Assembly (NCBI GenBank): GCA_964510585.1
Contig: CAZECW010000027.1
Coordinates: 13,595 to 45,594 of the forward strand
Origin: an uncultured archaeon
Lineage (GTDB): Archaea; Asgardarchaeota; Jordiarchaeia; Jordiarchaeales; Jordiarchaeaceae
DNA length: 32,000 nt
Direction: 5' to 3'
Made by a program: the position numbers and the translations under genes. Below, piece after piece: positions 1,156 through 31,587 of the stretch. The notes under the pieces are model-generated. The model was not told the origin of the DNA. It searched no databases and saw only the letters and a list, made by a program, of their open reading frames with translations. Numbering within the stretch: position 1 is the first letter of the stretch; each line of letters begins with the position of its first letter.

Positions 1156-1329
1156 AACCCAAATTTTATGAATAATAAACTTCTCATAGAAAGCCAAAAG
1201 CAGTGGGATAAGCAAAACTTTTTTATTAAAAAAGTAGGTCTAATATAAACCCTAGCCTGTATGGATTTACCTTGATGAAAGGTTTGAGGGACGGTGAAGA
1301 AATTTTTCGTTATTTGGGAGTGGTTTGGT

Positions 1330-2190: not shown

Positions 2191-2194
2191 GCGC

Positions 2195-7124: not shown

Positions 7125-7511
7125 CTAGAATTCTTTTAAGAATCCACTATCATTCTGGAGTATACTGTAAACCTTATTCATGTCTGAATTCCAGTACATG
7201 TGAACCAGCATGTTTCGGAAACCCGCTAGGTCTGATAAATTGTTTGCTAAATCAGTTAGTATTATGTTTGATTCTGAAAGTATCTCGAAAGTTTCCTTAT
7301 AAGTTAAAGGCTTTCTATGCCCCCTTTCCGCAATTACATGGTTAGCAATATCTATTGCCGACTGAATGCTTACCAGCATGGCGTGTAAAACCATGTTTCT
7401 CTTATCTCTATCTTTTGCTAAATCCTCTTTTGAAATAGACTGATAACGCTCCCAGTCACTAAGAGACGCTTTTAATTCCTGCAAATGCTGCAGTATTCCC
7501 TCCACGTCCAT
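7125..7511 (-). CDS. hepT: HEPN (DUF86/HepT-like) ribonuclease toxin, possibly C-terminally truncated
   Basis: LAGFRNMLVHMY contains the HEPN R-X4-H motif; also AIDIANHVIA and PLTYKETFEIL. The TAG at 7125-7127 is followed in frame by ERVKDLLRK and a second TAG at 7095-7097. Confidence 0.85.
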   Translation of the reverse strand: MDVEGILQHLQELKASLSDWERYQSISKEDLAKDRDKRNMVLHAMLVSIQSAIDIANHVIAERGHRKPLTYKETFEILSESNIILTDLANNLSDLAGFRNMLVHMYWNSDMNKVYSILQNDSGFLKEF

Positions 7512-8787: not shown

Positions 8788-11652
8788 TTATTTTACTCGC
8801 CTTTTATCTAATTGTTCGATGAGGTTCATAAGTTCTTTCTTAAGTTTTTCTTTGCGTTTTAATTCTTTAGCGGTTATTACTCCCCCCTGTTCTTTTCTCT
8901 GCAATTCGTCGATTTGCATGCGGATTTCAATGAATCTGTCCCTTATGGTTTCTATCCCCTCTTTGTCTTGTGAGATCTCCCACATGGATTCTATGGTGTA
9001 GGGTACCTTGCTTAGAATTATGCTTGTTCGGATATAATCCATTTGAATCTTGTCATATCTGGGTTCTATCTGAGATTTTCTGGCTTGAAAATCCATTTCA
9101 CTAATTTTTCCTTCGCGATATTCCTGGTTCAGTTTCTGCAACTTTAAGCCCAGATTGTTGAGTTCCTCTTGGAGCTTCTCCCGTTCCCTAAGCAGTTTCA
9201 CAATTTTCTTTCTCTGAAGTGTCTCTACCTTATCCAAATCAATCAAGGAAGACAATATCTCCAATAGAGAAGCCTTTAATGTTGAAACTTCACCCTTCCA
9301 ATTTACAAGCTTTTCCCAGTTTTGCTCCTCAGCGCTAGACACAAATTCACGTAGCCTTTTTCTAATCCATTTCTCTTCTTCCACAGTGACACCACTGGTG
9401 ATACAGGTTGCGGTCAGTATATTTCCATCCTCCCGAATAAAGGTGCCGAACTCCGTCTCCAACTTTCTCAGACCGCCCTTCTTCATCTCGGCAAGGAAAG
9501 TCTTAACCGCTGACATAAAGCCCGAAACCAAAGTCGCATCCTGTTCCATCTTGAAAAAGTCAAAAGCCCACACAGTAACACCACTTGGAATGTAGTCAAC
9601 AATAATGTTCTCAAGACTAGCCATAGCCCTCAACGGAACCATGCGTCTCCTATGTACTCTACTAGCCACCATTCCCCCCACAGCCGCCAATCCCACAACA
9701 ACTCCTAAAGCGAGGTAACGTGTAATTTTCTGATTTTGCTCAGATAACATATTAGACACTAACAGGATTAAACCAGTTACCTCGGGATTAATAACCACGT
9801 AATATGGAGCCTTAAAGTTAATGGTAACAGTACCAGAAACACTCGACGCATAAAATCTTACGCCACTAGCTACGAAACGAATTTCGTGAACTCCAAAATC
9901 TGTGCCAAAATCCACAATGAAACTATAAGTACCGTTCCCATAATCCGTTTTATTATAAATAGGTAAAACCTTCGCACCCTCATAGGCCATTATTGCAGCA
10001 CCAGCCAACCCCTCCCCTGTTACATTATCATAGTAGAAAAGAGTTATTGGGACAGTATTAGGATACTCAACATGTTCAGGAAAACTAGTCACAACCAAGC
10101 CAGTAGCAATTAGAGGCACAATTTCCAGAACAGTTTCATTATATCCCACTGATAATCCATCCCTAAAACTAATCGTCACATTAAACATTCCGTGGGTGGT
10201 GGCTGTACTTCTCACATTCCAACTAAACACCACACTAGGAACACCCGACAAAGCCTTCGTATTTGTATAATTCAACCTTTGAGATGAATCATAAATATCC
10301 AGAGTCACACTTCCACTAACAGAAGCATCAAAGCTCACAGCGATCTCAAGAAAATCATCCAGGGTGGCGTTTTCAACAGGAACCCCACCAACCATAAAAC
10401 CTATGCCGGAAAGATAATTGGGAGCCGTGCAGTTAACAGTCCAAGTACCATTACCAGCAACAAAACTAATAGCATCGGGAGGGTGAGAGTCCAATGCAAC
10501 CCAATTGGCACCATCAAAAGCCATCGAGCTCGAATCACCCCAGTCTGAAGGAATACCCGTAATGTTAATATGATTAACACCAGTGCCAGTCATAGGGAAG
10601 GCGTTTTCAGCATCGATGGTAACATTCCAAAAAGCGTCACTATTATTATAAACAACAAAATTAGTTGTAGCAGTGAAATTCCTGGCGTAGGTTACGTTCC
10701 AAACATAAGAAAAACTAACAGGGGCCCACCATGTAGAAGCTACATCATAAAAGATATATCCCGTTGAAACAGGTGTTTCGCTACCGCTAATCCAGTTTCC
10801 ATTACCCCTACTGGCGTCTAAAACAGTTGAACCATTAATAGTTAAACCCACTTCTGATGGAAGAAAAATATTACTAACATTTACTTTCAGCTTAAAATCA
10901 ACATTCAACGGTGACCAGGTTCCAGACTGGTATTCGTATGCGTATCCTCCACTAGACGGTGAGACTTGTTTCCAGTAAAACTTGGAGGAGTCTATGTTTT
11001 CAATACCGATGAAAAACGTGTTATCAAATGTAGTGGAAGTGTCAAGGAATTGATGGCCAAAATCCACATCAAACCAAATGGGGTTACCAGAGGGTATAGA
11101 AATGGTTGAAACATTTTTAATTAAATTATTCGGTACGGGCACTCCACCGCTGTTAATTGCATTGTAGACATAAAAGTGACCGATGCTTCCCCCACCGGGC
11201 GACCTTAACTCAACACTAACATTATCCAGGTAGGCGTTACTCGTCAATCTAAATGACATGGCAAGAAGGCTAATTTTTGTGTCGCCGTTGTACGGGTTAG
11301 GATTTGGTTCAATTGTAGTATTTGGTGCATTAATACCAGTGAGTGTTAGGTTTGCCCAGATGATTTTCCAACCGCTGGGACAGGGAACATAAATATCTGA
11401 AGAAGTGTTCGTGTAATTTGGCACATTATCATAATTGTTTGTAATATACAATAAAGCATTTAATTGATCTCCGCTGCCCGTGTATGATTTTGTCATGTTG
11501 TCCAAGTTATTCAAGTTTAGGAAGGTGAGGGGCTGATTCGGGCTTAATGTGGCGAGTATAGCGATTGTTGAAATGGCAAAAATCAGAAAGGTTGCTAACG
11601 CTACCCTTTCTTTCAATTTTATCCTCCCAAAGATAGAATTTTTAGTCTTCAT
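8788..11652 (-). CDS. Large membrane-anchored surface protein: N-terminal signal/anchor, beta-rich ectodomain, TM helix, cytoplasmic longin-like domain, coiled-coil tail
   Basis: Hydrophobic residues ~17-36. Residues ~40-620 are Asn/Ser/Thr/aromatic-rich with about 23 N-x-S/T sequons (eye count). TM ~646-663 followed by RVHRRR. Residues ~680-800 contain DATLVSGFMSAVKTF...NWKG, a pattern I associate with Asgard longin-like domains. Residues 805-954 are a charged heptad-rich helix. Confidence 0.8.
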   Translation of the reverse strand: MKTKNSIFGRIKLKERVALATFLIFAISTIAILATLSPNQPLTFLNLNNLDNMTKSYTGSGDQLNALLYITNNYDNVPNYTNTSSDIYVPCPSGWKIIWANLTLTGINAPNTTIEPNPNPYNGDTKISLLAMSFRLTSNAYLDNVSVELRSPGGGSIGHFYVYNAINSGGVPVPNNLIKNVSTISIPSGNPIWFDVDFGHQFLDTSTTFDNTFFIGIENIDSSKFYWKQVSPSSGGYAYEYQSGTWSPLNVDFKLKVNVSNIFLPSEVGLTINGSTVLDASRGNGNWISGSETPVSTGYIFYDVASTWWAPVSFSYVWNVTYARNFTATTNFVVYNNSDAFWNVTIDAENAFPMTGTGVNHINITGIPSDWGDSSSMAFDGANWVALDSHPPDAISFVAGNGTWTVNCTAPNYLSGIGFMVGGVPVENATLDDFLEIAVSFDASVSGSVTLDIYDSSQRLNYTNTKALSGVPSVVFSWNVRSTATTHGMFNVTISFRDGLSVGYNETVLEIVPLIATGLVVTSFPEHVEYPNTVPITLFYYDNVTGEGLAGAAIMAYEGAKVLPIYNKTDYGNGTYSFIVDFGTDFGVHEIRFVASGVRFYASSVSGTVTINFKAPYYVVINPEVTGLILLVSNMLSEQNQKITRYLALGVVVGLAAVGGMVASRVHRRRMVPLRAMASLENIIVDYIPSGVTVWAFDFFKMEQDATLVSGFMSAVKTFLAEMKKGGLRKLETEFGTFIREDGNILTATCITSGVTVEEEKWIRKRLREFVSSAEEQNWEKLVNWKGEVSTLKASLLEILSSLIDLDKVETLQRKKIVKLLREREKLQEELNNLGLKLQKLNQEYREGKISEMDFQARKSQIEPRYDKIQMDYIRTSIILSKVPYTIESMWEISQDKEGIETIRDRFIEIRMQIDELQRKEQGGVITAKELKRKEKLKKELMNLIEQLDKRRVK

Positions 11653-12670: not shown

Positions 12671-12682
12671 TTGGTGAAAATT

Positions 12683-13042
12683 ATGTCCAAAAAATCCATC
12701 CCTCAAGACCTAGTAGAAAACTGGAAAAGACAGTTACGAAAAGGAATCCTCGAACTCGCCGCCCTATCAAGTGTTGCAGAGGAAGAAGTTCACGGCTATG
12801 CATTGATAAACCGCCTCAAAGAGTACGGCATTCCGGTAACTTCAAGCACAATATACCCAATACTTCAGAGGCTCACAGACAATAACCTAATAGAATCAAG
12901 GTGGGCGGAGTTCGACCAGGGACACCCCCGAAAATACTACACGATCACGGAACAGGGAAAACTAGTACTCGCAGAACTGAGGGAAGAATGGAGAAACTTT
13001 ACCAACCTAATAAATTCTCTCATCCTGAAAGAAAAGAGGTGA
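12683..13042 (+). CDS. PadR-family transcriptional regulator
   Basis: QLRKGILELAAL...HGYALI...STIYPILQRL...GHPRKYYTITEQG is the PadR winged-helix signature. ATG at 12683 follows GGTGA. Confidence 0.93.
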   Translation: MSKKSIPQDLVENWKRQLRKGILELAALSSVAEEEVHGYALINRLKEYGIPVTSSTIYPILQRLTDNNLIESRWAEFDQGHPRKYYTITEQGKLVLAELREEWRNFTNLINSLILKEKR

Positions 13043-13047
13043 AGTGA

Positions 13048-13851
13048 ATGGTAAGCAAAGAAGCAGAAAACATGATAGAAGACTACCTGAAAAAAGTTGA
13101 AAAGAGTATGACTGAAGCGAGCAAAGCCAAGAAGCAAGAGGTACTCAAAACACTGAGATCCCACATAATGGACGCACTACAAGACCAGAAGGGAAAAATG
13201 CCCGAAACCGAAATAGTCAAAAACACGATAAAAGACTTGGGAGTGCCCAAAACAGAGCGTTTCGCTGAAAAGTTAATACCCTTGATTGTTTTAACAGTCG
13301 TTGGCCTATTCATCCTAACAGTAGAAAACATTGCTGGCCTCATGTACCATTTTTCGCTTCCCTACTTTGTATGCGTTTTCTCCGCGGTAGGAGTATGGGA
13401 AGTCTGGCGTAGAACCATAGGCGAAAGATTTGAGAACAGGAGAATAGACATTATTGGATTCTGGCTGATCTACCTAGTGGCTATAGTTGAACTATTCTTA
13501 CTTGAACATTACATTATTCCAGTAATGGGACCAGCAACCATACTGAAACTTGTAGGATTCGTTTCGGTAAGAGATGCACTCCTTGGGTTTGTTAACCCGC
13601 CAATCGTAGTGGATTTGCTTATGTATGAGGCTCTAAAGTCGCTTTCGTTTGAGATCCTTATCGTTTCAGCCCCAGGCGGAATCGGTTTAACAAGCATGGT
13701 TGCACTAAGCGCAGGTATCATAACAGTTTTGATGTCTGGCTTCTTGATTCTAAGGCCCCAAGAGTTCCAGAGTAAAAAGTGTTCAAACTGTGGGAAAGAA
13801 GTCGAAGGAAACGCGAAGTTTTGCTGGAATTGTGGAGAAGAAATCGCATAA
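13048..13851 (+). CDS. Membrane protein with N-terminal HAAS/DUF1700-like domain and C-terminal zinc ribbon
   Basis: IEDYLKKVEKSM...LRSHIMDAL...DLGVP N-terminus, typical of PadR-partner proteins. About 4-5 TM segments. CSNCG...FCWNCG at the C-terminus. Starts 5 nt after padR. Confidence 0.8.
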   Translation: MVSKEAENMIEDYLKKVEKSMTEASKAKKQEVLKTLRSHIMDALQDQKGKMPETEIVKNTIKDLGVPKTERFAEKLIPLIVLTVVGLFILTVENIAGLMYHFSLPYFVCVFSAVGVWEVWRRTIGERFENRRIDIIGFWLIYLVAIVELFLLEHYIIPVMGPATILKLVGFVSVRDALLGFVNPPIVVDLLMYEALKSLSFEILIVSAPGGIGLTSMVALSAGIITVLMSGFLILRPQEFQSKKCSNCGKEVEGNAKFCWNCGEEIA

Positions 13852-18281: not shown

Positions 18282-19247
18282 TTGTTAGTTTTGGGAGTCG
18301 ATGGTGGGGCCACAAAGACTGCATGTGTGGTGGCTGACGAAAATTTTAAGATTTTAGGTGTGGGAGTAGCTGGCTCCAGTAACTACCACGTGGTAGGTGT
18401 GGAAGCAGCCCAGAAGAGTGTTGCCCTCGCCCTCAAGCGAGCCATTCCCCCAAAGCTCAAGCACAACATTGATGTTTGCTGTTTTGGTATAGGTGGGCTT
18501 AACACTAAACGGGACGAAAAGATAATCTCAGGATTTATAAAGCCCCTAGTGTCTGCCAGAAGACAAATATTCGTTAATGATGTAGTTATCGCCTTCCACG
18601 CCGCTACCTGTGGCGAACCCGGAATCGTTATGGTTGCGGGAACGGGATCCATAGCCTACGGAGTTAACCAAGAGGGAAGGGAAGGGGTGGCAGGAGGCTG
18701 GGGATGGCTCATAGGAGACGAGGGAAGCGCATTTTACATAGCTAAAAGAGCATTAATGAGTGCTTCCAAAGCTTATGACGGCCGCGGAAAACCTACAAGC
18801 CTTGTGGAACTCTTCTGCAATCATCTAAAAATTTCTAAGTTTGAAAACATTATCTCCAAAATTTATGAGGAAATGAAGCCCCGCGACCTGGCATCCCTAG
18901 CTCCCCTAGTTACGCAAGCCGCCCAAAACGGAGACGAGGTAGCCCAAAAAATATTGGAGGATGCGGCGAGGGAGCTGGCACTAACAGTTAAAGCCCTAGC
19001 AGAAAGACTAAACATGAAGGGTCGCTTCACCGTGGGAGCGGCGGGCGGCGTTTTCAAATCCCAACCGGTGTGGAGATTCTTCCAGAGCGAAGTTCAAAAA
19101 CAGGTTCCCGGAGCAGAGTTAACTAAACCCTTGGAGTATCCTGTGATTGGGGCCCTAATAATGGGATTCAGAGATCAGAGGGTGATGGTAACTCCAGAGG
19201 TTAGGGAGAAACTGGAAAAGAGTTTGAAAACCTGGCTTGAAAACTAG
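18282..19247 (+). CDS. BadF/BadG/BcrA/BcrD (ASKHA) family sugar kinase, probable N-acetylglucosamine kinase
   Basis: GVDGGATKT phosphate-1 motif, VNDVVIA, AGTGS, GGWGWLIGDEGS, GGVF. Adjacent to nagA and a SIS deaminase. Confidence 0.85.
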   Translation: MLVLGVDGGATKTACVVADENFKILGVGVAGSSNYHVVGVEAAQKSVALALKRAIPPKLKHNIDVCCFGIGGLNTKRDEKIISGFIKPLVSARRQIFVNDVVIAFHAATCGEPGIVMVAGTGSIAYGVNQEGREGVAGGWGWLIGDEGSAFYIAKRALMSASKAYDGRGKPTSLVELFCNHLKISKFENIISKIYEEMKPRDLASLAPLVTQAAQNGDEVAQKILEDAARELALTVKALAERLNMKGRFTVGAAGGVFKSQPVWRFFQSEVQKQVPGAELTKPLEYPVIGALIMGFRDQRVMVTPEVREKLEKSLKTWLEN

Positions 19248-19250
19248 TTG

Positions 19251-20282
19251 TCATATTTTTACAACTTTTTTCAGGTGGCGGGGAGCGTCCGGGTTTAGAC
19301 CTCTACTCACACAGTAGTGGTAGGCAAATAGCTGCAAAGGAATTATCTGGATCGTGGGGGAGAGTATGTCATCCACTTTGGGGGTGGCGAGGGTTTGGGT
19401 GGCTGGTACGGTGGCTCCGCTTGTTACTGCTAGAACTTTGGCCCCCTTCTCCTTTATCTCTTTGATGAGTTCTACGTATTCATTGCTAGGTCTTTCTGGA
19501 ACCAAGCATATTGCAAGGGTTTTCTCATCAACTACTGCCATGGGGCCGTGTCTAAACTCTAGCGGGTGGTAGGCTTCCGAGTGAACGTAGGATGTTTCCT
19601 TGAGTTTTAGGCTTCCCTCAAGGGAGACCCCATAGCTTGAGCCCCCGCCCAGGAAAATAAATTTCTGCTCCTCGCAGTTTAGCGCTAGTTCACGCATCTT
19701 TTCGTTCAGGGTGAGGGTTTTTTGAGCAAGTTTAGGTATTCTTCTTGCCTGGCTTAACTGTTTTCCCACTTCTTTGCCCTGGGTTTCGGCGTAGTGGAGT
19801 GCTAGGAGCTGTAGGGCGTAGACTTGGGTGGTGAAGGTTTTCGTCATTATCACACTTTTCTCTTCTCCGGCGTTGACTGTTATTGCCAGTTTTGAGTTTC
19901 TGGCCATGCTGCTTTCGCGGGTGTTTGTGATGCTTACTGTGAGTGCTCCGAGCTGGTTTGCTTTGGAGATTGCTCTTACGGTTTCGGTGGTTTCCCCCGA
20001 GCGGGAGACTCCTAAGGCTACCGCTTGACTTTTGGCTTGTGGTGGGGGATACTCGTAGAACTCGGAGGAGGGTGTAACGTATGCGTCAACTTGGGCATAG
20101 GTTTCTAGGGCGAATTTTCCGCAGAGGCAAATATAATGTGAGGAACCGCACCCAAAAAGGTAGAATCTATACTCTTTTTCGGAGAGAATTTTAGCAACCT
20201 TCCCAATGTTTTCTTCCTCAAGGAGGGTTCTCATGAGAGCGTCGGGCTGCTCATAAATTTCCCTCAGCATATAGTGTTCCAT
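19251..20282 (-). CDS. Double-SIS-domain protein without a glutaminase domain, probable glucosamine-6-phosphate deaminase (isomerising, GlmD type)
   Basis: MLREIYEQP, GCGSS, VSRSGETTET, EKSVIMTKTFT, EGSLKLKETSY, EFRHGP, NPDAPRHLKKVV. No N-terminal amidotransferase domain. Confidence 0.85.
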   Translation of the reverse strand: MEHYMLREIYEQPDALMRTLLEEENIGKVAKILSEKEYRFYLFGCGSSHYICLCGKFALETYAQVDAYVTPSSEFYEYPPPQAKSQAVALGVSRSGETTETVRAISKANQLGALTVSITNTRESSMARNSKLAITVNAGEEKSVIMTKTFTTQVYALQLLALHYAETQGKEVGKQLSQARRIPKLAQKTLTLNEKMRELALNCEEQKFIFLGGGSSYGVSLEGSLKLKETSYVHSEAYHPLEFRHGPMAVVDEKTLAICLVPERPSNEYVELIKEIKEKGAKVLAVTSGATVPATQTLATPKVDDILSPTIQIIPLQLFAYHYCVSRGLNPDAPRHLKKVVKI

Positions 20283-20783
20283 TTTTACACCTCACCCTTG
20301 CACCTGAAAAAAGGGGGAAGAGGGACTCCGCCTTCTTAAAAGGCCAAACATTCGGGAATCCGATATTCTTCCCTGGAGATTGAAAAATGGGGGGTTTCCC
20401 ACTGAACAGTGAATGGGGGTTTTAATCCAATTATGCGTCTTATTATATTTTTCAATTCTTCTCGCCCTTAAAAAGATGAGGGCTTCTTCACAGTTACAAT
20501 TGGACACAGTGCTTCCTTGGCATATTTTACTTTTTTCAAAAAAATGGTTTTAATTCTGAAAATTTTTCAAATTTGCATTGTAAAATTGCAAAAAATTCAC
20601 CAAACATGCCAAAAAAGCAAAAATTAAAAACCGTGCAGCACAGCGTAAACACTCAAAATTCTTAAATAGTATCCCGCCCATATCAGGAGTTTAAACTAGT
20701 TCAACTTACACTGCCTCTAATGCCTGGAATTGAGCTTCTGTTCTGGGACACCCTCCATCAAATTGGGTTTTTGGTGATTTTTC

Positions 20784-21968
20784 ATGGTTAAGGAAACCCT
20801 TGCAGTTAGGTGTGGTAGAATACTTACACCCTCAAGAGAGATAAGTGACGGTATCATTCTAGTTGAGGGAAGCAGAATAGTTTCCCTAGGTGTTGATGGT
20901 GAATTAACTATTCCAAGGGGTGCCAAAACTTTAAACTTTGGGGACAAAATAGCTGTCCCCGGGTTCTTGGACATTCACATTCATGGGGGAGGAGGAAGCG
21001 ATGTAATGGAAGCTTCAGAAAAGGCAGCCATAGATTTAGCACTTTTTGCATCTAGCCACGGGGTGACATCCATTCTCCCCTCAACAGTCTCCGCCCCTCA
21101 CAGCAGCCTCTTGAAAGTTGTCAGGGTTCTTGGGGAAATGGTGGGGAGGGAAACGGGAGGAGCTGAAGTACTGGGAATCAATCTGGAAGGACCATACATT
21201 AATCCTAAAATGCGGGGAGCCCACAACGCCAAACACATTAGGCTCCCTTCAGTGAGAGAGTTTAAAGATTTGTGGGAGGCGTCAGGCGAGAAGCTGAAAA
21301 TAGTGACACTGGCTCCAGAGTTGGAGGGTGCTGAGAACCTTTTGGCTGAGCTTCAGAAACTGGGAGTGGTGGCCGCAGTTGGCCACTCAGACGCCGCCTA
21401 CAGTGAAGTCATGGAAGCAGTCACTCTTGGTCTCAGCCACGCAACCCACACTTTTAATGGAATGAGAGGGTTCCACCACAGGGAGCCTGGGACAGTGGGA
21501 GCGGCTCTACTTTGTGAGAAGCTAACAGCCGAGGTTATTTCTGACAATATTCACGTGCACCCAGAAGCAGTAAGACTGTTAACCAAGGTGAAGGATCCCA
21601 GCCTCATAGTTCTAGTCACTGACTCAATTATGGCTGCTGGCATGCCCGACGGTGAGTATCGATTGGGGAATCGGAGAGTTACCGTGAAAAACGGTGTTTG
21701 TAGGCTGAAATCCGGAAGCCTTGCTGGAAGCACTCTAACAATGGAGACCGCCATAAGAAACACTGTACGAGCTGCGGGTCTCCCCTTACAGGTGGTTTTA
21801 GGAATGGCTACTGTAAACCCTGCAAGAGTTATTGGTGTCGATGACAGGAAGGGAAGTTTGGCGCCGGGTAAAGACGCCGATATAACTATAATAGACAGTG
21901 AGGTAAACGTTTACGCCACAATAGTGAAGGGAAAAATGGTTTATGGGAAGGTTTTATTGGGTAAGTAG
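20784..21968 (+). CDS. nagA: N-acetylglucosamine-6-phosphate deacetylase
   Basis: PGFLDIHIHG, NLEGPYI, GAH, VGHS, ATHTFNGM, SDNIHVHP, LVTDS, LAGSTLTM, NPA. Confidence 0.93.
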   Translation: MVKETLAVRCGRILTPSREISDGIILVEGSRIVSLGVDGELTIPRGAKTLNFGDKIAVPGFLDIHIHGGGGSDVMEASEKAAIDLALFASSHGVTSILPSTVSAPHSSLLKVVRVLGEMVGRETGGAEVLGINLEGPYINPKMRGAHNAKHIRLPSVREFKDLWEASGEKLKIVTLAPELEGAENLLAELQKLGVVAAVGHSDAAYSEVMEAVTLGLSHATHTFNGMRGFHHREPGTVGAALLCEKLTAEVISDNIHVHPEAVRLLTKVKDPSLIVLVTDSIMAAGMPDGEYRLGNRRVTVKNGVCRLKSGSLAGSTLTMETAIRNTVRAAGLPLQVVLGMATVNPARVIGVDDRKGSLAPGKDADITIIDSEVNVYATIVKGKMVYGKVLLGK

Positions 21969-22203: not shown

Positions 22204-22357
22204 AAAGTCATAAAACCAACCACCAAACCGTAAACCTTGCCCCCCTGGGAAGTATTAAAACATAAAAGGAATTTGGAAGCTTCATTTGCCACCCCTTTGG
22301 AAAAATATAAAAAAGTGGGAAGGGAAGGAAAAATTCGTATCTCTTTTGTTATGTTAT

Positions 22358-22861
22358 TTATTTTATGGGTTCCACTCCGATTATGTCGCTTAGTTTTCCT
22401 TCGGGTTTTTCCTTCCAGACTGCTTGGACTCTCATTCCTATGTGTGCTTCCTCAGGCTTGGCGTTCAGTAGTATTGTTGTGTATTTTGAGTTGGTGCCGT
22501 CAAAATTGACGAGTACCATTATTAGTCTCTCTCCTTCCTTGAGCCAACCCATTTCCACAGGATCCATTCCTAAAACCTTTACTTGTCCCTTCTTTACCGC
22601 CTGACTCAAAGTGAAGGACTTAACTGTGCCCTTATCACTAACTGTCACTCGGGCGTCTATTTTTCTCCAGCATCTACCACAAATATTTCTCATTGGCACA
22701 TATACGAATCCGCAGCCAGTACACAATGATCCAATTATTTTCTTCTGCTTAAATCCCTCAAGGAGCTCCTGGTAGAGCGTAGGTGCCTTATAAACGTAGG
22801 AGCCTACGGGCCACACGCCTTCCACTGCAATTGTTTCTTTTCTTACCTTTTTCGACATCAT
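22358..22861 (-). CDS. DUF35-family Zn-ribbon/OB-fold protein
   Basis: GSLCTGCGFVYVPMRNICGRC, GTVKSFT, HIGMRVQAVW. Last gene of the thiolase-like operon. Confidence 0.88.
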   Translation of the reverse strand: MMSKKVRKETIAVEGVWPVGSYVYKAPTLYQELLEGFKQKKIIGSLCTGCGFVYVPMRNICGRCWRKIDARVTVSDKGTVKSFTLSQAVKKGQVKVLGMDPVEMGWLKEGERLIMVLVNFDGTNSKYTTILLNAKPEEAHIGMRVQAVWKEKPEGKLSDIIGVEPIK

Positions 22862-22862
22862 C

Positions 22863-24119
22863 TCACCACCTTAATCTTGGTGTATCCCCCAGAACTGTTA
22901 CTACTGTGAAGTTGGTTGAGCCTCCCCAACCGTGTGCTACTGCGTTCTTTACGTCTTTAGGCACTTGGTGTTCTTCAGCTTTACCCATTATTTGTAGGGC
23001 GCACTCCGCTACTCTCTGCATTGCTGAGGAGCCTATGGCATTGGTTGAGAGCACGCCTCCTGAGGGGTCGATTGGCAATTTGCCATCTATTTCTGTTTCT
23101 CCCTCCTCGAGGGGAATCCAGGCCTTTCCGTCGTCAAAGAGAAGAAGTCTCTCCGAATACATCAGTTCCTGGTGTGGGAATGGTTGGTAAATCTCAGCTA
23201 CATCAATCTCTTCTCTGGGATTCTTTATCCCAGCCATACGGTAGGCCTTCATCGCCGCAATTCGACACTGCATCTGCTCCGAAGTATCCAATATGGATAC
23301 TCCTTGAGCGTTTTCCGCCTGCTGATTCTCCTCATCGGCGCAAGCCGCAAGACCTCTCACCCAAGCTGGTCTATCAGCTTTCCTCGCTATTTCTTCAGAT
23401 GCAATCACAATGGCTGAGGCTCCATCACTTGCTGGGCAAATGTGTCCAAGCCTTAATGGATAAGCAACAATTTCGCCAAACCGGGGATGTTTTGCTAGGG
23501 ATTCAGCAGTGCAGTTGGGCCACTGAAGATGGGCATACTTATTTTTGGCGGCGTTTCTCCTTGATTTGGCGGCAACCATATCCAAATGTTCGATTTTGCA
23601 TCCAGAGCGGTGCATGTACTCACATGCCTGGTATGCAGAAACGCCTGCGGCTGCGCCAACTCCTCCACCATAGGCAAAGCTGGTTCTTACATCAACTCCA
23701 TTTGCAAGTAGGTGGAACATGTTTGCTAGTCCCACATGGGATAGCCCCATTGTTGCCCCGGGCTCTTTGCTATCTGAGTGTTTTTCAAATCCTATTGCTA
23801 GGACAGTGTCGAAGAGTCCTGAAGCTACCTGGTACATTCCACACTGGGCTACTGAGCCTCCGGTTGTGCCTCCAGTAGCTATTCTGAGTACTGGTTTGCC
23901 CGGTGCGGCGAAGAGGTCTCCACTCCACAATTCTGCTTGGCAGATGCCTCCAAAGCCTTGCATGTTCCCTATGGCAATGGCGTCTATGTCCTCGGGGCCT
24001 AGTTCGGCATCCTCTAGGGCCTTCCAGGCCGCCTCTGCTATCATTTCTGCAGCGTTAATGTCTCTCCTTATTCCATGTTTGGTTTGTCCAACACCAATTA
24101 CTGCAATGTTTCTCCACAC
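22863..24119 (-). CDS. SCP2-thiolase-fold protein lacking the nucleophilic Cys (Ltp3-like, probable aldolase subunit)
   Basis: IAVIGVGQT; GKPVLRIATGGTTGGS with Gly at the usual Cys position; CPASDGA; AEIYQPFPHQE; PSGGVLSTNAIG. The GTG start shares one base with the upstream TAG. Confidence 0.85.
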   Translation of the reverse strand: MWRNIAVIGVGQTKHGIRRDINAAEMIAEAAWKALEDAELGPEDIDAIAIGNMQGFGGICQAELWSGDLFAAPGKPVLRIATGGTTGGSVAQCGMYQVASGLFDTVLAIGFEKHSDSKEPGATMGLSHVGLANMFHLLANGVDVRTSFAYGGGVGAAAGVSAYQACEYMHRSGCKIEHLDMVAAKSRRNAAKNKYAHLQWPNCTAESLAKHPRFGEIVAYPLRLGHICPASDGASAIVIASEEIARKADRPAWVRGLAACADEENQQAENAQGVSILDTSEQMQCRIAAMKAYRMAGIKNPREEIDVAEIYQPFPHQELMYSERLLLFDDGKAWIPLEEGETEIDGKLPIDPSGGVLSTNAIGSSAMQRVAECALQIMGKAEEHQVPKDVKNAVAHGWGGSTNFTVVTVLGDTPRLRW

Positions 24120-25270
24120 TACTCCTCACCTCCCAGAATGAAGACTATGTTTTGCTGGGCGCATATGCCAGTTTGGCCGTGGGCTAGGACTCTCCAAGCT
24201 CCTGGTATTTGGTGGGCTCCAGCTTCTCCCCTTATCTGCATTGTGGCTTCAACTATTCTTATCAACCCTGTGGCAGTTATGGGGTCTGCTGAGAGGGCCC
24301 CACCGCTGGGATTTACTGGCAGTTGACCATCGTTAAAGGTTGCACAGCTATCTATCAGGGTTCCTCCTCTGCCTTCCTCGCAGAAGCCCAGTGCCTCATA
24401 AATCATAAGCTCCTCATGGGCGTATCTTTCTGACACTTCGGCTGCATCTAGTTCTGCGAAGGGGTTCTTTATACCCGCCATTTGGTATGCTTTTTTTGCT
24501 GCGGCTTCGAGTCCCTCGAGCTTGTAAAGTTTTCTATCCCTAATATATGAGTCCTGGCAGCTGCCTACGCCTTTTATCCAAACTGGACAGTCAGAAAGCT
24601 CCCTCGCCTTCTTCTCTGAGGCTAGCACCACTGCTGCGGCCCCATCACTTATGGGAGACATGGTAAGTTCCCTAATGGGGTCACAGTAGAGCTTGGAGCT
24701 TAACACCTCTTCCAGAGAAATTCCGGGCATTCTGCGGTGTGCATGGGGATTCTTAGCGGCGTTGCCCAGATTCTTCACGGATACTATGGCTGCTTCTTCC
24801 TCAGATATGCCGTACTTGTTCATGTATACTCTCGCCTGAATAGCGGCCGCAGAAATGTCGTTTAAAACACCTATTTGCCTATCAAAAGTTGGGTCTAAAG
24901 TGTAGACAGAGATTTGGTGTGGATTGAATGTTGAACCCTGAGTGTTGGCTACTATTAATGCTATGTCGTGTGTTCCTGAGAGTATTTTGAGCATACCGTA
25001 GAAGACGGCGTTGGCTCCATCCATCTCCACCTTGGTGTAATCCTTAAGGTATGCCCCAATGGGCATAACTAGGAAAAGCTCTGAGATGGTTCTTCCCTCA
25101 TAGTAATCGTTTGTGGCGTTAATTACTGTGTCAATGTCCTCCCTTTCAATGCCCGCCATCTTGGCGGCTTCCTTAGCCACCTCAAAAACCATGTCTTCCC
25201 TGGTCATTGGCATGTTTGCCTGATGGTAGGATTGCGCGTACCCAATTATTGCAACTTTTTCCCTCATCAT
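24119..25270 (-). CDS. SCP2-thiolase-fold protein lacking the nucleophilic Cys (Ltp4-like)
   Basis: NDYYEGRTIS...TKVEMDGANAVFYGMLKILSG resembles Ltp4-type sequences as I recall them. Also SPISDGAAA and NPSGGALSAD. Confidence 0.82.
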   Translation of the reverse strand: MMREKVAIIGYAQSYHQANMPMTREDMVFEVAKEAAKMAGIEREDIDTVINATNDYYEGRTISELFLVMPIGAYLKDYTKVEMDGANAVFYGMLKILSGTHDIALIVANTQGSTFNPHQISVYTLDPTFDRQIGVLNDISAAAIQARVYMNKYGISEEEAAIVSVKNLGNAAKNPHAHRRMPGISLEEVLSSKLYCDPIRELTMSPISDGAAAVVLASEKKARELSDCPVWIKGVGSCQDSYIRDRKLYKLEGLEAAAKKAYQMAGIKNPFAELDAAEVSERYAHEELMIYEALGFCEEGRGGTLIDSCATFNDGQLPVNPSGGALSADPITATGLIRIVEATMQIRGEAGAHQIPGAWRVLAHGQTGICAQQNIVFILGGEE

Positions 25271-25279
25271 GTTCTCACC

Positions 25280-25753
25280 TTACTTCTCGGGTTTGAATCC
25301 TTTAATGTCGGAGATTTGGCCTTTGGTCTCCTCCTGCCAGACTACTTTCACTGTGATGCCCTCCTTAAGTTTCTCTGGCTCCACATCTATTAGGGGCATA
25401 AATATTGTTGAATCCGCGTCTTCAAGCTTTATGGCTCCAATCGCTTTAGGCTTTTCCAGATCTCGAAAGTTGCCGTTGCCGTCCAGTTCAACATAGGCAG
25501 TTGTGTAGCCTACCAGAACTCCCCTACCGGAAAGTTCCACTAGGTTGTTTGCGTCCATTTTTGCTGAGCACTTACTACACCATGCTCTTGGAGGAACATA
25601 GGTATAATTGCACTTGGAACATTTGGCTCCCAATATTTTCTTGTTTCCCAGTTCTTTGATGAATCTGTCCATGAGTTCTCCCACAGACCACCTGAACCCG
25701 GCGACAACTGGAATTCCCTTAACCGGTATAACTTCCTCTTTTAATATTTTCAC
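25280..25753 (-). CDS. DUF35-family Zn-ribbon/OB-fold protein
   Basis: LGAKCSKCNYTYVPPRAWCSKC, GRGVLVGYT, VKVVWQEE. First gene of the operon. Confidence 0.88.
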   Translation of the reverse strand: MKILKEEVIPVKGIPVVAGFRWSVGELMDRFIKELGNKKILGAKCSKCNYTYVPPRAWCSKCSAKMDANNLVELSGRGVLVGYTTAYVELDGNGNFRDLEKPKAIGAIKLEDADSTIFMPLIDVEPEKLKEGITVKVVWQEETKGQISDIKGFKPEK

Positions 25754-25810
25754 AAATTAACCCTCCAAAGTAGAAAAACTGCGAAACACTGAAAAGTATT
25801 CATTCGACAC

Positions 25811-25826
25811 ATTTATAAAATTAACG
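25811..25826 (-). promoter_or_regulatory. Candidate BRE/TATA of the DUF35-thiolase operon
   Basis: The minus strand reads CGTTAA-TTTTATAAAT about 60 nt upstream of the start at 25753. Confidence 0.4.
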
Positions 25827-26029
25827 AAAAGAATCGTCAAAAGTTGATCGGATTCTATTCAGAACCATTCTCTTTTTCTGAAGACTCAAAAAATAATGTC
25901 CCAAAGACCCCTTATTAAATTAAAAACAGACACATGACGATAATAATTTTTCAAATTAGTTGAATCTGGAGTGACGCATAGTCTCAAATAAAATTTATAA
26001 ATTTGTGGTTAGCCCTATTGGTCATGTTT

Positions 26030-26594
26030 TGTTGATTTTTCTTGTAGTTCTCTTATCTTGACCACCTCTCCAAGTGTTTTCAAGTTGATGTTTTCTCTTC
26101 TTCGTAGGTTTCTGTGACTACTGGTTTCACACCCCAATATACTTCATTACTTTTTTCTCTCTAAGATCTTCAAACTGTTCTATTACATCCAAATTTACTT
26201 TAGCGATTCGTTTACTATAATATCCTGTAATTTGAATTTTTAGCAAAGCTATCCCAAGCCTTCTTAAGACAGGCCCAAGACCAACGTCAGTGTTAGTTAT
26301 CCTGCTTTAGGGAACAATACCAGTTTTTAAAACATATTCCTCTTCTTCATACAATTTCACTATCCATAAGTTGAAAAAGATCATGCCGCAATATTTCCTG
26401 CCCCAACAGAAAAAGAAAAAAACATTTAGGCAAGACGGATAAAGAGTAGAAGAAAATACTTATGGCTTTAAGTGGACTAAAAACAGTAAAGGGGAAATAC
26501 AGGGCAAAAACAAGAAACAAAACGCTGCCACCGAACAAGTGTAGTAGAGTTTTCTAAGCTGGGGATAGGTTTAACCCCCTTAACCAATTTTCAC
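26030..26594 (-). pseudogene. Degraded YdbS/DUF304-like membrane protein with bacterial PH (bPH_2) domain
   Basis: Pieces across frames: VKIG*..KPIPSL/RKLYY, a hydrophobic stretch, then KLYEEEEYVLKTGIVP*SRITNTDVGLGPVLRRLGIALLKIQITG...EQFEDLREK. This matches the bPH_2 pattern IPxxRIxxVDxxQGPLxRxFGxxxLKIQTAG. Several stops and frameshifts; ends are approximate. Confidence 0.65.
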
Positions 26595-26810
26595 GCCAAA
26601 ACTTTTCAAAAATGTTAACCTCACAAAAAATTTGAAAAACCACCATTAAATAGGCCTTCGCCAATCTGAAACTATAAATAATTTTGCACAGCCAAACGTA
26701 AACTTATCAAACCCATACAAAGCCACAATAAAATTAACCACCAAGCCATTGCAGATGGCTTAAAAAAAGGTACAGGATCAGAACTTTAAAAAAATGGGGG
26801 GAATGCGATT

Positions 26811-27959
26811 TTAAATGGATATGGGGTATTTCCCATATTTTTTGATGGAGTTGACTAGTGCTTCAACGTTTTCTGGTGGAGTGTCCCTAGGCACCTGGTC
26901 GCCGAAGACCATACAGCCCCCTCCAGGAGCCAAGACTTTTATTAGTTTTTTGACGTGGTTTTCTATTTCTTTGGGAGTGCCTTTGCTTATGATTCCCGCT
27001 CTTACCCCGAAGAACCAGGGTTTCTTCAGCCTATTAGACATCTCCTTTATCTTCTCTGGAGGCAGCCAGTCAGACTCCAGCATAACCACCATGCCCACCA
27101 GCGATCCCGTTTTAACCACAACGTCTTCCATGATTTTCTCCCACCCAGGAATTTCCATCACTGGGAAGCCTCCCGCCCACATCATGGGGCCAAGTCTTTT
27201 CATAATCTCTGTCGTGTGCGGAATCACATAGTCGTAGACAAGCTGGGGACTTGTGGGTGGGATGCACGAAAAGGCGTCTGCAAGTGCTGGAAAAGCTGCT
27301 ACACCTCCCAGCGCTTCTTTCTGGGCTTTTACAAATGCTTCGATAACGTCGACACAGAAATCGAGGATTTTGTGGGCGAACTCCGGGTTTTTCCTCGTAT
27401 CGCGTACTAGGTTATTGAATCCCCGGATTTGCACTGCCATAGACCAGGGTGCGGAAGCTACCAAGGTGGTGAAGGCATATTCTCCTAACTTTTCTAAGTA
27501 TAGTTTGGAGCCCTCAATGACATAAGGTCCGCGGCCAGCCTTTGTGAAGTCTGGTATATCTAGTTTTTCCAGGTCCTTGGGCTCCTTGATTAGGGGTTCT
27601 AAAATGACTGGAAAGCTGTCTTCAGGGAATAGCATTTTTGCTCCCAGAGCTTCGGCCTCATAATTGTAGGCGTCGGCAAAAGCTCCTGGTATGTCGAACT
27701 TGTACTTTATTGCTGTAAATAGCTGAGCGTAAATCATTTTCTTGGGATCAGTGCATAGCTCTCTTACAGTTATCCCTGCTACTTTCGCGGCGTGGTCGTG
27801 TATCTGCATAAAGACTGGCATTCTATCTGGCTCTTGGAACATGAATATCTTGGTAAACCGCTCTATTGTGGTGTGGGGTTCTTTTGAGGCCATCTCCTTG
27901 AACTTTTCGGCAAGCTTATTTATCTCAGCATCGATGTTTGCTTCAGTTAATTTAACCAT
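26811..27959 (-). CDS. URO-D-fold (MtaA/CmuA-like) corrinoid-dependent methyltransferase, paralog 1
   Basis: EPDRMPV, YNYEAEALGA, DFTKAGRGP, APWSMAVQIRG, KGTPKEI, APGGG, DTPPEN. Lacks the HemE RQAGR motif. Directly downstream of a corrinoid protein. Confidence 0.85.
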   Translation of the reverse strand: MVKLTEANIDAEINKLAEKFKEMASKEPHTTIERFTKIFMFQEPDRMPVFMQIHDHAAKVAGITVRELCTDPKKMIYAQLFTAIKYKFDIPGAFADAYNYEAEALGAKMLFPEDSFPVILEPLIKEPKDLEKLDIPDFTKAGRGPYVIEGSKLYLEKLGEYAFTTLVASAPWSMAVQIRGFNNLVRDTRKNPEFAHKILDFCVDVIEAFVKAQKEALGGVAAFPALADAFSCIPPTSPQLVYDYVIPHTTEIMKRLGPMMWAGGFPVMEIPGWEKIMEDVVVKTGSLVGMVVMLESDWLPPEKIKEMSNRLKKPWFFGVRAGIISKGTPKEIENHVKKLIKVLAPGGGCMVFGDQVPRDTPPENVEALVNSIKKYGKYPISI

Positions 27960-27973
27960 CCTTTTTTGCCTCC

Positions 27974-28612
27974 TTATGCTTTTACTAGTTTTTTCGCTAC
28001 TTCGACTGCTTCTAGGGCGTCGTTGGCGAAGGCGTCTGCGCCTACCTCTTCAACATGTTTGGGGTAGACTGATGCTCCTCCAATGAGGTATTTTATTTTT
28101 TTTCTGACGCCTGCTTTCTTCATTTCTTCGTTGAGTTTACGGAGTTCGTCTATGGTTGTGGAGATGTATGATGAGGCTCCCACTATTTGTGGGTTCTCTT
28201 TTTTGATGGCTTCTATGAATTTTTGGGGTGAAACATCTGTTCCCAGGTCGACTACATAAAAACCGGCACCGCGAAGCATAGCTACCACAATGTTTTTTCC
28301 AATGTCGTGTACGTCTCCTTGGCAGACTCCCATAACAATTTTTCCGAGGAACTCTTTACTTGCTGTTTGTAGTTGTGGGAGGATTAGCTTCAGCCCCTCA
28401 CTCATTGCCTCCGCAGCCATAACTAGGTCGGGAACGAAGTACTCTTTGTTCTCATATTTTTTGCCAACTTCGTCCATTGCCTTGCCCATACCTTTAATTA
28501 TGTCTATGGGTTTAACTCCCTCTCTTAACAGTTTTTGAACCGCCTCCTTTGTGGCGTCAGATTCACCATTAATTATTGCTTCTTGGAGTTTGCTTAGTGT
28601 ATTTTCAGACAA
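27974..28612 (-). CDS. Corrinoid (B12-binding) protein, MtbC/MttC/MtaC-like
   Basis: N-terminal four-helix cap (GMGKAMDEVGKKYENKEYFVPDL), GDVHDIGKNIV (DxHxxG), DLGTDVS, IGGA. TTG start after GGAGGA. Confidence 0.93.
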   Translation of the reverse strand: MSENTLSKLQEAIINGESDATKEAVQKLLREGVKPIDIIKGMGKAMDEVGKKYENKEYFVPDLVMAAEAMSEGLKLILPQLQTASKEFLGKIVMGVCQGDVHDIGKNIVVAMLRGAGFYVVDLGTDVSPQKFIEAIKKENPQIVGASSYISTTIDELRKLNEEMKKAGVRKKIKYLIGGASVYPKHVEEVGADAFANDALEAVEVAKKLVKA

Positions 28613-30438: not shown

Positions 30439-31587
30439 TTATTCGATTGCTATCGGGTATTTTCCATGCTTTTTTATGGAGTTGATGAAGGTCTCGAAGT
30501 TCTCGGTTGGGGTGTCTATGGGGATAGGGTCGCTTATTACAACGCAGCCGCCTCCGGGGCCAAGTATCTTTATTTTGCTTTTAATGTAGTTTTCTATTTC
30601 TTTGGGAGTGCCTTTACTTATGAGAGATGATCCAACTCCGAATGCTAAAGGTTTGCGTAGCCTGTTTGATATTTCCTTGATTTTCTCGGCTGGCATCCAG
30701 TCCGACTCTAACATAATGAGGAAGCCCATTTGCGTTCCACTCTTTGTCACCATGTCTTCCACGATTTGCTCCCACTGCGGAATTTCGCAAACAGGGTAGC
30801 CTCCAATCCACAGTGCCATACCAAGCTTCTTGATGAGTTCTGCTGTGTATGGAAATACGTAGTCGTAGACGATTTGGGGACTAGCTGGAGGGATGCATGA
30901 GAAGGCATCATTTATAGTGGGAACCCCGGCAATCCCCGCTGCTTCCCTCTGGGTTTTCACAAAGACTTCAATAACACCAACACAGAAATCAAGTAGCCTC
31001 TCCACAAATCCCGGATTTTTCCTAGTGTCTTTAACCAAATTGTTGAAACCTCTTAATTGCACCGCCAGTGTCCAGGGACCATTAGCTACTATGCTTAGAA
31101 GACCATAATTTCCCAGTTTCTCTAAATATAGCCTATTTCCCTCCAACACGTAGGGTCCGCGGCCAGCCTTTGTGAAGTCTGGTATTTCCAGCTTTTCCAA
31201 GTCCTTGGGCTCCTTAATTAGGGGTTCAAGGATAACTGGCCAACTGTTTTCAGGATAGGACATTTTTGCTCCCAACGCTTCGGGCTCAAAGTTGTAAAGG
31301 TCAGAAAGGTTGACTACAGTGTCCATCTTGAATTTCACAGCTGTGTAGAGTTGTGCGTAGAGCATTTTTTTGGCATCAGTGCAAAGTTCCCTAATTGTTA
31401 TCCCCGCAATTCTTGCTGAGAACTGGTGCACCGTTGTTGAGACGGGCATTCTGTCCGGCTCTTGAAAAAACATAATCTTTGTGAACCTCTCCAAGAACGA
31501 TTGGGGCTCCCTTGAAACCCTATCCTTAAACTGCTCAGCCAACATATCTATTTCAGCATCAATACTTCCCTGTTTAAATTTGGCCAT
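30439..31587 (-). CDS. URO-D-fold (MtaA/CmuA-like) corrinoid-dependent methyltransferase, paralog 2
   Basis: Colinear with 26811-27959 over its full length (roughly 60% amino-acid identity by eye). A 32-nt identical DNA stretch occurs at 31154-31185 and 27526-27557. ATG after GAGGAG. Confidence 0.85.
   Translation of the reverse strand: MAKFKQGSIDAEIDMLAEQFKDRVSREPQSFLERFTKIMFFQEPDRMPVSTTVHQFSARIAGITIRELCTDAKKMLYAQLYTAVKFKMDTVVNLSDLYNFEPEALGAKMSYPENSWPVILEPLIKEPKDLEKLEIPDFTKAGRGPYVLEGNRLYLEKLGNYGLLSIVANGPWTLAVQLRGFNNLVKDTRKNPGFVERLLDFCVGVIEVFVKTQREAAGIAGVPTINDAFSCIPPASPQIVYDYVFPYTAELIKKLGMALWIGGYPVCEIPQWEQIVEDMVTKSGTQMGFLIMLESDWMPAEKIKEISNRLRKPLAFGVGSSLISKGTPKEIENYIKSKIKILGPGGGCVVISDPIPIDTPTENFETFINSIKKHGKYPIAIE

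Follow-up and report, generated by a model that had tools for sequence, protein, structure and literature searches.

A DUF35-flanked pair of cysteine-free thiolase folds in a Jordarchaeia genome, homologous to the actinobacterial Rv3521-Ltp4-Ltp3 module

What reaction can be expected of two thiolase folds that are encoded side by side and both lack the nucleophilic cysteine? The question is raised by a four-gene operon in a 32,000-nucleotide stretch of an uncultured Asgard archaeon (GenBank assembly GCA_964510585.1, contig CAZECW010000027.1, positions 13,595 to 45,594 of the forward strand), referred to here as the window, in whose positions coordinates are given unless a contig or locus precedes them. 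The operon was read in the order DUF35a-ThlA-ThlB-DUF35b, all on the minus strand, where ThlA and ThlB are the thiolase folds and the two flanking genes encode DUF35 proteins. The list of open reading frames (ORFs) gave intergenic gaps of 9, -1 and 1 nucleotides (nt), confirming the tight coupling described in an initial annotation made from the sequence alone. On the 5' side, a spacer of about 1 kb (25754-26810) with no ORF longer than 63 amino acids (aa) separates DUF35a from a URO-D-family gene. A TATA-like box, TTTTATAAAT, is the probable promoter of the operon and three oligo-T runs past DUF35b probably form an archaeal terminator, both read from the letters (table 1). Because of the spacer, the box, a Shine-Dalgarno-like site, the T-runs and a convergent downstream neighbour on the plus strand (20784-21968), the four genes were taken to be a self-contained operon.

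Catalytic positions of ThlA and ThlB

Catalytic positions were read from HMMER alignments to solved thiolases, using 6esq for ThlB and 7yvy for ThlA. In ThlB, RIATGGTTGG aligned to RVEAACASGS of 6esq, which places Gly84 of the loop ATGGTTGG where thiolases have the Cys nucleophile; VAEIYQPF aligned to VAEVHDCF, replacing His by Tyr311 and Cys by Pro313 (Y311-Q-P-F), and the GHP position read T-N360-A, with Asn360 at the His. In ThlA, KVEM---DGANAV aligned to KIEAACASGGAAV of 7yvy, a three-residue deletion that shortens the nucleophile loop to KVEMDG (E82, D84) and leaves no Cys; EVSERY aligned to EVHDAF, giving SERY at the HDCF position, and the GHP position read ADP, with Asp329 at the His. 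A C-terminal GQxGxCAQ loop of ThlA retains Cys370. Measured against a competent SCP2-type thiolase, both proteins have the fold, and both lack the Cys of the C-x-S loop, the His and Cys of HDCF and the His of GHP. The alignment was considered sound because xCAS, HDCF and GHP stand at these positions in seven further thiolase genes of the genome. The absence of a nucleophilic Cys from either fold, which had first been noticed from the nucleophile loops (VEMDG in one of them), was thereby confirmed, as was the Tyr of AEIYQPF.

The replacements are themselves conserved. Among 52 relatives of ThlB, G83, G84, Y311, F314 and N360 were invariant and P313 was present in at least 90%; E82, D84 and G85 were invariant across 35 relatives of ThlA. 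As 65 ThlA positions were at least 97% conserved across 104 relatives, ThlA is evidently constrained and no decayed duplicate. Since the substitutes are conserved in this way, the loss of catalytic residues is, judging from these alignments, not a matter of chance. A displaced catalytic Cys was considered and, from the sequence, rejected: Cys174 and Cys228 of ThlB are conserved but lie outside the nucleophile loop, and Cys228 (CPxSDG) also occurs in canonical thiolases. As a separate observation, residue 332 of ThlA (approximately 24275-24277) is Thr here and Cys in 99 of 104 relatives (P-C-A-T-G).

Relatives, partner proteins and distribution

The best NCBIfam model for ThlB was NF006180 (PRK08313, Ltp3) with 437 bits; ThlA scored 256 bits with the same model and 202 bits with NF005924 (PRK07937, 'lipid-transfer protein', Ltp4). 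Genomes of Actinomycetota were scanned, and 33 of 251 contained NF006180 members above the cut-off; a locus search from one of these members retrieved Mycobacterium, Rhodococcus, Gordonia, Nocardia and Prescottella. In the actinobacterial loci, a protein of about 325 aa with two DUF35 domains is followed by an NF005924 protein (642-657 bits) and then by an NF006180 protein, which is the published order Rv3521 - ltp4 (Rv3522) - ltp3 (Rv3523) (PMC6429209). DUF35a was the best match of domain 1 of the tandem-DUF35 protein in the Mycobacterium, Prescottella and Nocardia loci, and DUF35b that of domain 2 in two of these three (Prescottella and Nocardia). One locus, L205 (CAMCWJ010000343.1), labelled 'Bifidobacterium breve MAG' (MAG, metagenome-assembled genome), has a mycobacterial-type ltp3 (86% identity) and looks mis-binned.

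Motifs of Ltp3 were taken from true NF006180 members of Mycobacterium, Rhodococcus, Nocardia and Gordonia and read HTAGSVGG in the nucleophile loop, YVPF at the HDCF position and SNP at the GHP position; ThlB has ATGGTTGG, YQPF and TNA, so that the Ltp3 active-site signature (Gly at Cys, Y-x-P-F, Asn at the GHP His) is present in it. The corresponding motifs are HVEMDGAW, [HYL]APF and ANP in Ltp4 and KVEMDGAN, SERY and ADP in ThlA. A tree was computed with IQ-TREE, rooted on the canonical thiolases of the genome, with support given as ultrafast bootstrap/Shimodaira-Hasegawa-like approximate likelihood ratio test (SH-aLRT). Ltp3, the orthogroup of the window and a Loki/Solincola group were joined at 99/96, with the other B-type (ThlB-like) paralogues of the genome outside; the ThlB clade was sister to actinobacterial Ltp3 and not nested in it. 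The proposed check by phylogeny placed ThlB with Ltp3. ThlA grouped with A-type (ThlA-like) proteins, with an SH-aLRT of 100 for its orthogroup. It therefore appears correct, as a statement of homology, to call ThlA and ThlB sisters of the actinobacterial Ltp4 and Ltp3 subfamilies and not members of them, and the labels Ltp4-like and Ltp3-like of the initial annotation are upheld by the shared motifs, the gene order, the DUF35 domain matches and the ThlB tree. As far as sequence comparison goes, the homology is solid, and the cassette can be described as a split-gene archaeal counterpart of the actinobacterial Rv3521-Ltp4-Ltp3 module.

Both DUF35 proteins carry a Cys4 zinc ribbon, C45, C48, C59 and C62 in DUF35a (which also has an oligonucleotide/oligosaccharide-binding (OB) fold) and C47, C50, C61 and C64 in DUF35b, with the cysteines invariant in 26 and 21 relatives, respectively. 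The AlphaFold model of ThlB (predicted local distance difference test (pLDDT) 84, predicted template modelling score (pTM) 0.90) had the SCP2-thiolase fold and matched 6esq, 6hsp, 6ok1 and 9myr with template modelling (TM) scores of 0.75-0.88. The fold search was rejected as a guide to chemistry: thiolases, BbsB, PhlC, Ltp2 and Sal all scored alike against the model, so the fold does not tell these chemistries apart.

A complex was modelled from three chains, ThlA, ThlB and DUF35b, with an alignment for each. The interaction score ipSAE (derived from predicted aligned errors) of DUF35b against ThlA plus ThlB was 0.86, with 0.11 for the best of three controls; in calibration, 58 of 80 solved complexes attained the mark for this score, as did two of 110 mismatched pairs. 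The runs had at least 79% of contacts in common, and partner pLDDT was at least 81. Contacts of DUF35b were mainly with the ThlB insert 128-170, with others at 216-221 and 263-279 and some on ThlA, and the DUF35b score collapsed when ThlB was swapped out. The ThlB-specific insert 128-170 is accordingly modelled as the docking site of DUF35b; as thiolase-DUF35 complexes have already been solved, the pass may reflect likeness to these and is not proof of docking. Going by the gene order, by the fusion of two DUF35 domains in the actinobacterial protein and by the alpha-beta-beta-alpha arrangement seen with Ltp2 and Sal (PMC12329534), DUF35a would pair with ThlA, and ThlA with ThlB in a heterodimer. 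The four-subunit assembly suggested at the outset is plausible, since each complete locus examined has all four genes and DUF35b docks in the model.

The nearest loci, at 96% protein identity, came from MAGs of Candidatus Jordarchaeia/Freyarchaeota. The stretch was present in seven hot-spring DNA metagenome studies, one of which is perhaps its source, and no RNA dataset was listed as containing it. Among 31 relatives at 50-69% identity, belonging to Methanolliviera, Archaeoglobi, further archaea and many Dehalococcoidia, all four genes were found together in every complete locus; Hadarchaeales and Deltaproteobacteria were represented among the protein matches. The genes run a-A-B-b in archaea but A-B-b-a in Dehalococcoidia, and the cassettes of the two are 60-70% identical. 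A second group, approximately 50% identical, comprises Lokiarchaeia, Thor-, Hod- and Hermodarchaeota and anaerobic Actinomycetota (Solincola). Locus L070 (DATKTW010000129.1), labelled 'Nanopelagicaceae', grouped tightly with Hermodarchaeota (97-99 support) and looks mis-binned. The notion of a core Asgard gene was discarded, as a strong match was found in just 38 of 201 sampled Asgard genomes (the present genome, G000, counted). These strong matches were mostly from one family (32 of its 45 genomes) and included two of the five other genomes of the genus; given these counts, the cassette is accessory and patchy and has crossed domains.

The genome has 24 SCP2-thiolase-like genes, seven with the full Cys/HDCF/GHP set and 12 forming six Cys-less A/B cassettes, each with two DUF35 genes. 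The B-type paralogues C38:12917-14086, C12:6645-7814 and C193:23317-24510 read ATCG[TS]TG and YNPF, with a Cys one residue before the nucleophile position.

Predicted chemistry and competing explanations

The four proteins are proposed to form a DUF35a-ThlA-ThlB-DUF35b complex, the core of which would be a heterodimer of two distinct Cys-free SCP2-thiolase folds, each capped by its own zinc-ribbon/OB protein. As no acyl-cysteine intermediate is possible, thiolase activity and Claisen condensation are both excluded for the complex. Most likely it would perform a reversible retro-aldol cleavage of a 3-hydroxyacyl-CoA to acetyl- or propionyl-CoA and an aldehyde, ketone or beta-keto acid, with Tyr311 of ThlB (Y-x-P-F) as the base acting on the 3-hydroxyl. 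Such an enzyme would take over from dehydrogenase and thiolase in a route resembling beta-oxidation, on substrates whose beta-carbon is not oxidisable, i.e. branched or ring-borne. Two Cys-less thiolase folds have been assayed as retro-aldolases, TcLtp2, in which the base is Tyr294 of YDHF and the acid Tyr344, and CtSal, with Tyr302 and Cys304 of YDCY (PMC12329534), and Ltp3-Ltp4 has been termed a heteromeric aldol-lyase on genetic (knock-out) evidence only (PMC6678751, PMC6593523). Retro-aldol chemistry had been put forward as established for Ltp2 and for Ltp3/Ltp4 together; this stands for Ltp2, and extends to Sal, but for Ltp3/Ltp4 the published basis is genetic. By analogy with these systems, retro-aldol C-C cleavage of a hydroxyacyl-CoA is held to be the function of the cassette with a confidence slightly above even.

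Several observations weigh on the other side. ThlB and Ltp3 retain only the Tyr, the His or Cys of YD[HC] being Pro313, and Asn360 stands at the position of Ltp2 Tyr344 and Sal Gln352, so that the second catalytic residue of the proven aldolases is missing. With the second Tyr of Ltp2 and the Cys of Sal absent, their mechanism is not simply transferable, and from its motifs the Ltp3/ThlB branch seems to represent a third active-site arrangement, neither that of Ltp2 nor that of Sal. No assay of any member of the Ltp3/Ltp4 branch was found in a literature search. Model scores fall short of subfamily membership, ThlB lying below the NF006180 cut-off of 514 bits (true members score 600-760) and ThlA below the NF005924 cut-off of 419 bits, where the actinobacterial Ltp4 neighbours reach 642-657. 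VEMDG is common to the ThlA group and Ltp4, but the HDCF position reads SERY or SEKF in the former and [HYL]APF in the latter, and in the tree a long branch joins the A-type proteins to Ltp4 with weak support (37). Neither a ligase nor a dehydrogenase nor a hydratase lies beside the operon in the window, and in Lokiarchaeia the neighbours of the cassette are unrelated to acyl-CoA metabolism.

Neighbourhoods in other lineages count in favour of the aldolase reading. An AMP-forming acyl-CoA ligase adjoins orthologous cassettes in several lineages; in Archaeoglobus a MaoC hydratase, an acyl-CoA dehydrogenase and ligases are near the cassette. Dehalococcoidia and a single archaeon have acyl-CoA dehydrogenases in pairs beside it, together with a gene for the beta-keto acid cleavage enzyme, BKACE (L005:3842-4813, L227:1902-2825). 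BKACE genes also adjoin paralogous cassettes of the present genome (C60:52666-53526, C139:12825-15173). BKACE enzymes convert a beta-keto acid and acetyl-CoA to acetoacetate and an acyl-CoA, and would suit the beta-keto-acid product of an HMG-CoA-lyase-like cleavage. A search of the genome for partner enzymes, as had been proposed, showed it to be rich in enzymes of acyl-CoA metabolism, with 17 acyl-CoA dehydrogenase-like, 21 ligase-like, six BKACE-like and five MaoC-like ORFs. Sterol, hopanoid or isoprenoid side chains, at first named as substrates, are speculation; for sterols and hopanoids no support was found, as the operon has no catabolic neighbours in the window and the host is an anaerobe of hot springs. 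A narrower proposal can be made only tentatively and is judged improbable as a whole, namely that the cassette cuts the C-C bond in an as yet undescribed, O2-independent breakdown of beta-branched acyl-CoAs, e.g. of isoprenoid acids from archaeal lipids. Its hosts would be subsurface and hot-spring Asgard archaea, Archaeoglobi, Hadarchaeales, relatives of Methanoliparia and Dehalococcoidia, its partners paired acyl-CoA dehydrogenases, a MaoC hydratase and BKACE for the beta-keto-acid product, and its catalytic set Tyr/Asn of ThlB with Glu/Asp of ThlA, unlike Ltp2 or Sal.

Aldol reactions are reversible, and the cassette might run in the biosynthetic direction, joining acetyl-CoA and an aldehyde or ketone to a 3-hydroxyacyl-CoA, for instance in CoA-dependent chain elongation that is free of acyl carrier protein, akin to the ketothiolase/DUF35 fatty-acid synthase that has been proposed for archaea. 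Thiolase/DUF35 pairs of Asgard archaea (mean 3.8 per genome) have been read as fatty-acid synthesis in a preprint (10.1101/2024.07.05.601840), and in Lokiarchaeia and anaerobic Actinomycetota the cassette sits amid housekeeping genes with no catabolic island. The characterised Sulfolobus enzyme, however, is a true ketothiolase, and Claisen condensation needs the Cys that ThlA and ThlB lack. The metabolic neighbours of the orthologues (ligases, FAD acyl-CoA dehydrogenases, BKACE) are typical of breakdown, neither a reductase nor an enoyl reductase is linked, and the distribution is patchy even within the genus (two of five other genomes), all of which makes a biosynthetic role unlikely.

Other Cys-independent chemistry might apply, such as decarboxylation of malonyl- or carboxy-acyl-CoA, in parallel to the weak activity of TbSLP or to the chain-length factor of type II polyketide synthases, which carries a Gln; the conserved Glu82/Asp84 loop of ThlA would then be the real active site. 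Alternatively, one or both subunits would be scaffold only. The near-invariant positions of ThlA, its acidic nucleophile-loop residues and its GQxGxCAQ loop would be odd in a pure scaffold and are left unexplained by the aldolase model, and TbSLP slowly decarboxylates malonyl-CoA (PMC12329534). That rate is very low, however, and the same paper argues that TbSLP is itself an aldolase (PMC12329534); Tyr311 of ThlB aligns to a proven aldolase base, and the genetics of Ltp3/Ltp4 fit a C-C cleavage step (PMC6678751). Decarboxylation or a scaffold role is for these reasons also regarded as rather doubtful.

A CoA-independent acyltransferase of the PhlABC/MucABC type, in which thiolase folds are joined by DUF35, is very improbable. 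PhlC was matched at E ~1e-17, the acyltransferase chains of 9skh/9skm and the MucABC chain 9vbo_E are also relatives, folds match at TM 0.75-0.78 and a DUF35 staple is present in those complexes too; but PhlC acts through Cys88, which is absent here (for a related acyltransferase, a C88S mutant structure has been deposited), the operon has no KAS III (ketoacyl synthase III) or HMGCS (HMG-CoA synthase)-like PhlA gene, the FabH-like gene at 3718-4776 lying 18 kb off, and the tree puts ThlB with Ltp3. Ordinary acetyl-CoA acetyltransferases or 3-ketoacyl-CoA thiolases, suggested by the fold and by the database names of homologues (which, as predicted initially, include 'acetyl-CoA C-acetyltransferase'), can practically be dismissed, since conserved residues have taken the place of all three catalytic elements in ThlA as well as in ThlB and the genome has seven fully canonical SCP2-type thiolases for that job.

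Surrounding genes and comparison with known systems

Features of the operon and its surroundings are listed in table 1. Corrinoid/URO-D methyltransferase genes lie on one side of the operon and a sugar-amine trio on the other. A conserved link to the corrinoid/URO-D genes was rejected: the arrangement was found only in Jordarchaeia (L001 and L002, at 85-89% nt identity), these neighbours are missing from all 111 related loci of other lineages, and the 1-kb spacer with a separate TATA box lies between. Within the genus the two may still be co-regulated.

Table 1. Positions of the operon, its signals, flanking gene groups and the further cassettes of the genome (G000).
Feature	Position	Strand	Description	Basis
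DUF35a	25280..25753	(-)	157 aa, GTG start	Pfam zf-ChsH2 1.4e-07, OB_ChsH2_C 1.8e-09
ThlA	24119..25270	(-)	383 aa, Ltp4-like thiolase fold	Pfam Thiolase_N, Thiolase_C_1
ThlB	22863..24119	(-)	418 aa, Ltp3-like thiolase fold	Pfam Thiolase_N, Thiolase_C_1
DUF35b	22358..22861	(-)	167 aa; divergent OB fold, below Pfam cut-off	Pfam zf-ChsH2 7.5e-06
TATA-like box TTTTATAAAT	25811..25820	(-)	~60 nt 5' of DUF35a start codon	read from sequence
GGAGGG, Shine-Dalgarno-like site	25761..25766	(-)	7 nt 5' of DUF35a GTG	read from sequence
Three oligo-T runs (T5, T6, T5)	22301..22333	(-)	<=60 nt past DUF35b stop codon	read from sequence
Two MtaA-like URO-D-family methyltransferases and a B12-binding corrinoid protein	26811-27959, 27974-28612, 30439-31587		upstream of operon	
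Amino-sugar-catabolism-like trio	18282-21968		BadF/BcrA-type ATPase (sugar kinase-like), double-SIS protein, amidohydrolase (NagA-like)	
Further A/B cassette	C28:24938-28263			
Further A/B cassette	C38:12428-15747			
Further A/B cassette	C60:54352-57750			
Further A/B cassette	C87:5419-8948			
Further A/B cassette	C139:19000-22288			

Loci of the Archaeoglobus type encode a small protein of the AF_0136 family (PF27315/PF27313) directly 5' of DUF35a (L033:7802-8359, L228:7828-8388), for which the window has no counterpart. At a distance of a few kb from the cassette, 15 loci of the Lokiarchaeia type have a PadR-zinc-ribbon gene (L068:9863-10495), and the window has a PadR regulator followed by an HAAS/zinc-ribbon protein at 12671-13851. 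Positions 1294-6695, 18 kb from the operon, encode an alpha/beta hydrolase, an AMP-binding acyl-CoA ligase, a convergent FabH-like KAS III and a radical SAM/SPASM protein, a group that may serve to modify lipids or other small molecules. A HepT-like ribonuclease, the toxin in a HepT/MNT pair, is encoded on the minus strand at 7125-7511. Two ORFs, of 954 aa (8788-11652, minus strand) and 372 aa (3-1121, plus strand, 5' end open), had no Pfam match at E <= 0.001, and no tRNA was found in a scan of the window.

Taken together, the interpretation first offered for the operon stands for its homology to Rv3521-Ltp4-Ltp3, which is solid, is plausible by analogy for an aldolase and is speculation for the sterol, hopanoid or isoprenoid substrate; the module is itself of a poorly characterised kind and is present here in a variant form. 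Were the aldol chemistry to apply, the Ltp3/Ltp4 branch would be a third, heterodimeric solution for it on the thiolase fold. The 60-70% identity between archaea and Dehalococcoidia suggests that the cassette is mobile and catabolic, and that its substrate is widespread in hot springs and anoxic sediments. Since only seven of the 24 'thiolase' genes have the full catalytic set and 12 are in Cys-less cassettes, counting thiolase/DUF35 pairs as a sign of Asgard fatty-acid synthesis, as in the 2024 preprint, would overcount. Expression and crystallisation may also be easier with a thermophilic split-gene version than with the mycobacterial set, and the Ltp3/Ltp4 reaction could in this way be opened to assay.

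Among known systems, Rv3521-Ltp4-Ltp3, which belongs to the degradation of C24-branched sterol side chains, shares with the cassette two DUF35 domains, an A-type VEMDG fold, a B-type fold with G-G loop, Y-x-P-F and Asn, the order DUF35-A-B and the encoding of DUF35 beside the A/B pair. It differs in that its DUF35 domains are fused in one gene, whereas here two genes flank the pair, and the window shows no steroid-catabolic context (fadD19, echA19, cyp genes) and comes from an anaerobic archaeon. TcLtp2-ChsH2(DUF35) (6ok1) is alike in its Cys-less SCP2-thiolase fold (TM 0.75-0.82), its DUF35 cap and the Tyr in place of the HDCF His, but matches in sequence only at E 1e-15; in Ltp2, which is a homodimer, the DUF35 cap is supplied by a domain of the hydratase ChsH2, and the YDHF His and the acid Tyr344 correspond to Pro313 and Asn360 of ThlB. 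The bile-acid aldolase CtSal-CtShy(DUF35) (9myr; TM 0.80) has a Cys-less loop with Gly and a Tyr base, as ThlB does, and its alpha-beta-beta-alpha DUF35/thiolase layout (PMC12329534) is one that the cassette would have in common with it; Sal, however, requires Cys304 of YDCY, where ThlB has Pro313, and its zinc site is Cys3His, in contrast to Cys4 in both DUF35 proteins here. The best match of ThlB was the archaeal thiolase/HMG-CoA synthase/DUF35 complex (6esq; E 6e-33, TM 0.83-0.88), which, like the Sulfolobus ketothiolase/DUF35 core of fatty-acid synthase, is archaeal and has a DUF35 staple; the thiolases of both systems are homodimers that keep Cys, HDCF and GHP, whereas the cassette stands without a linked HMGCS, reductase or dehydratase gene and would pair two different Cys-free folds.

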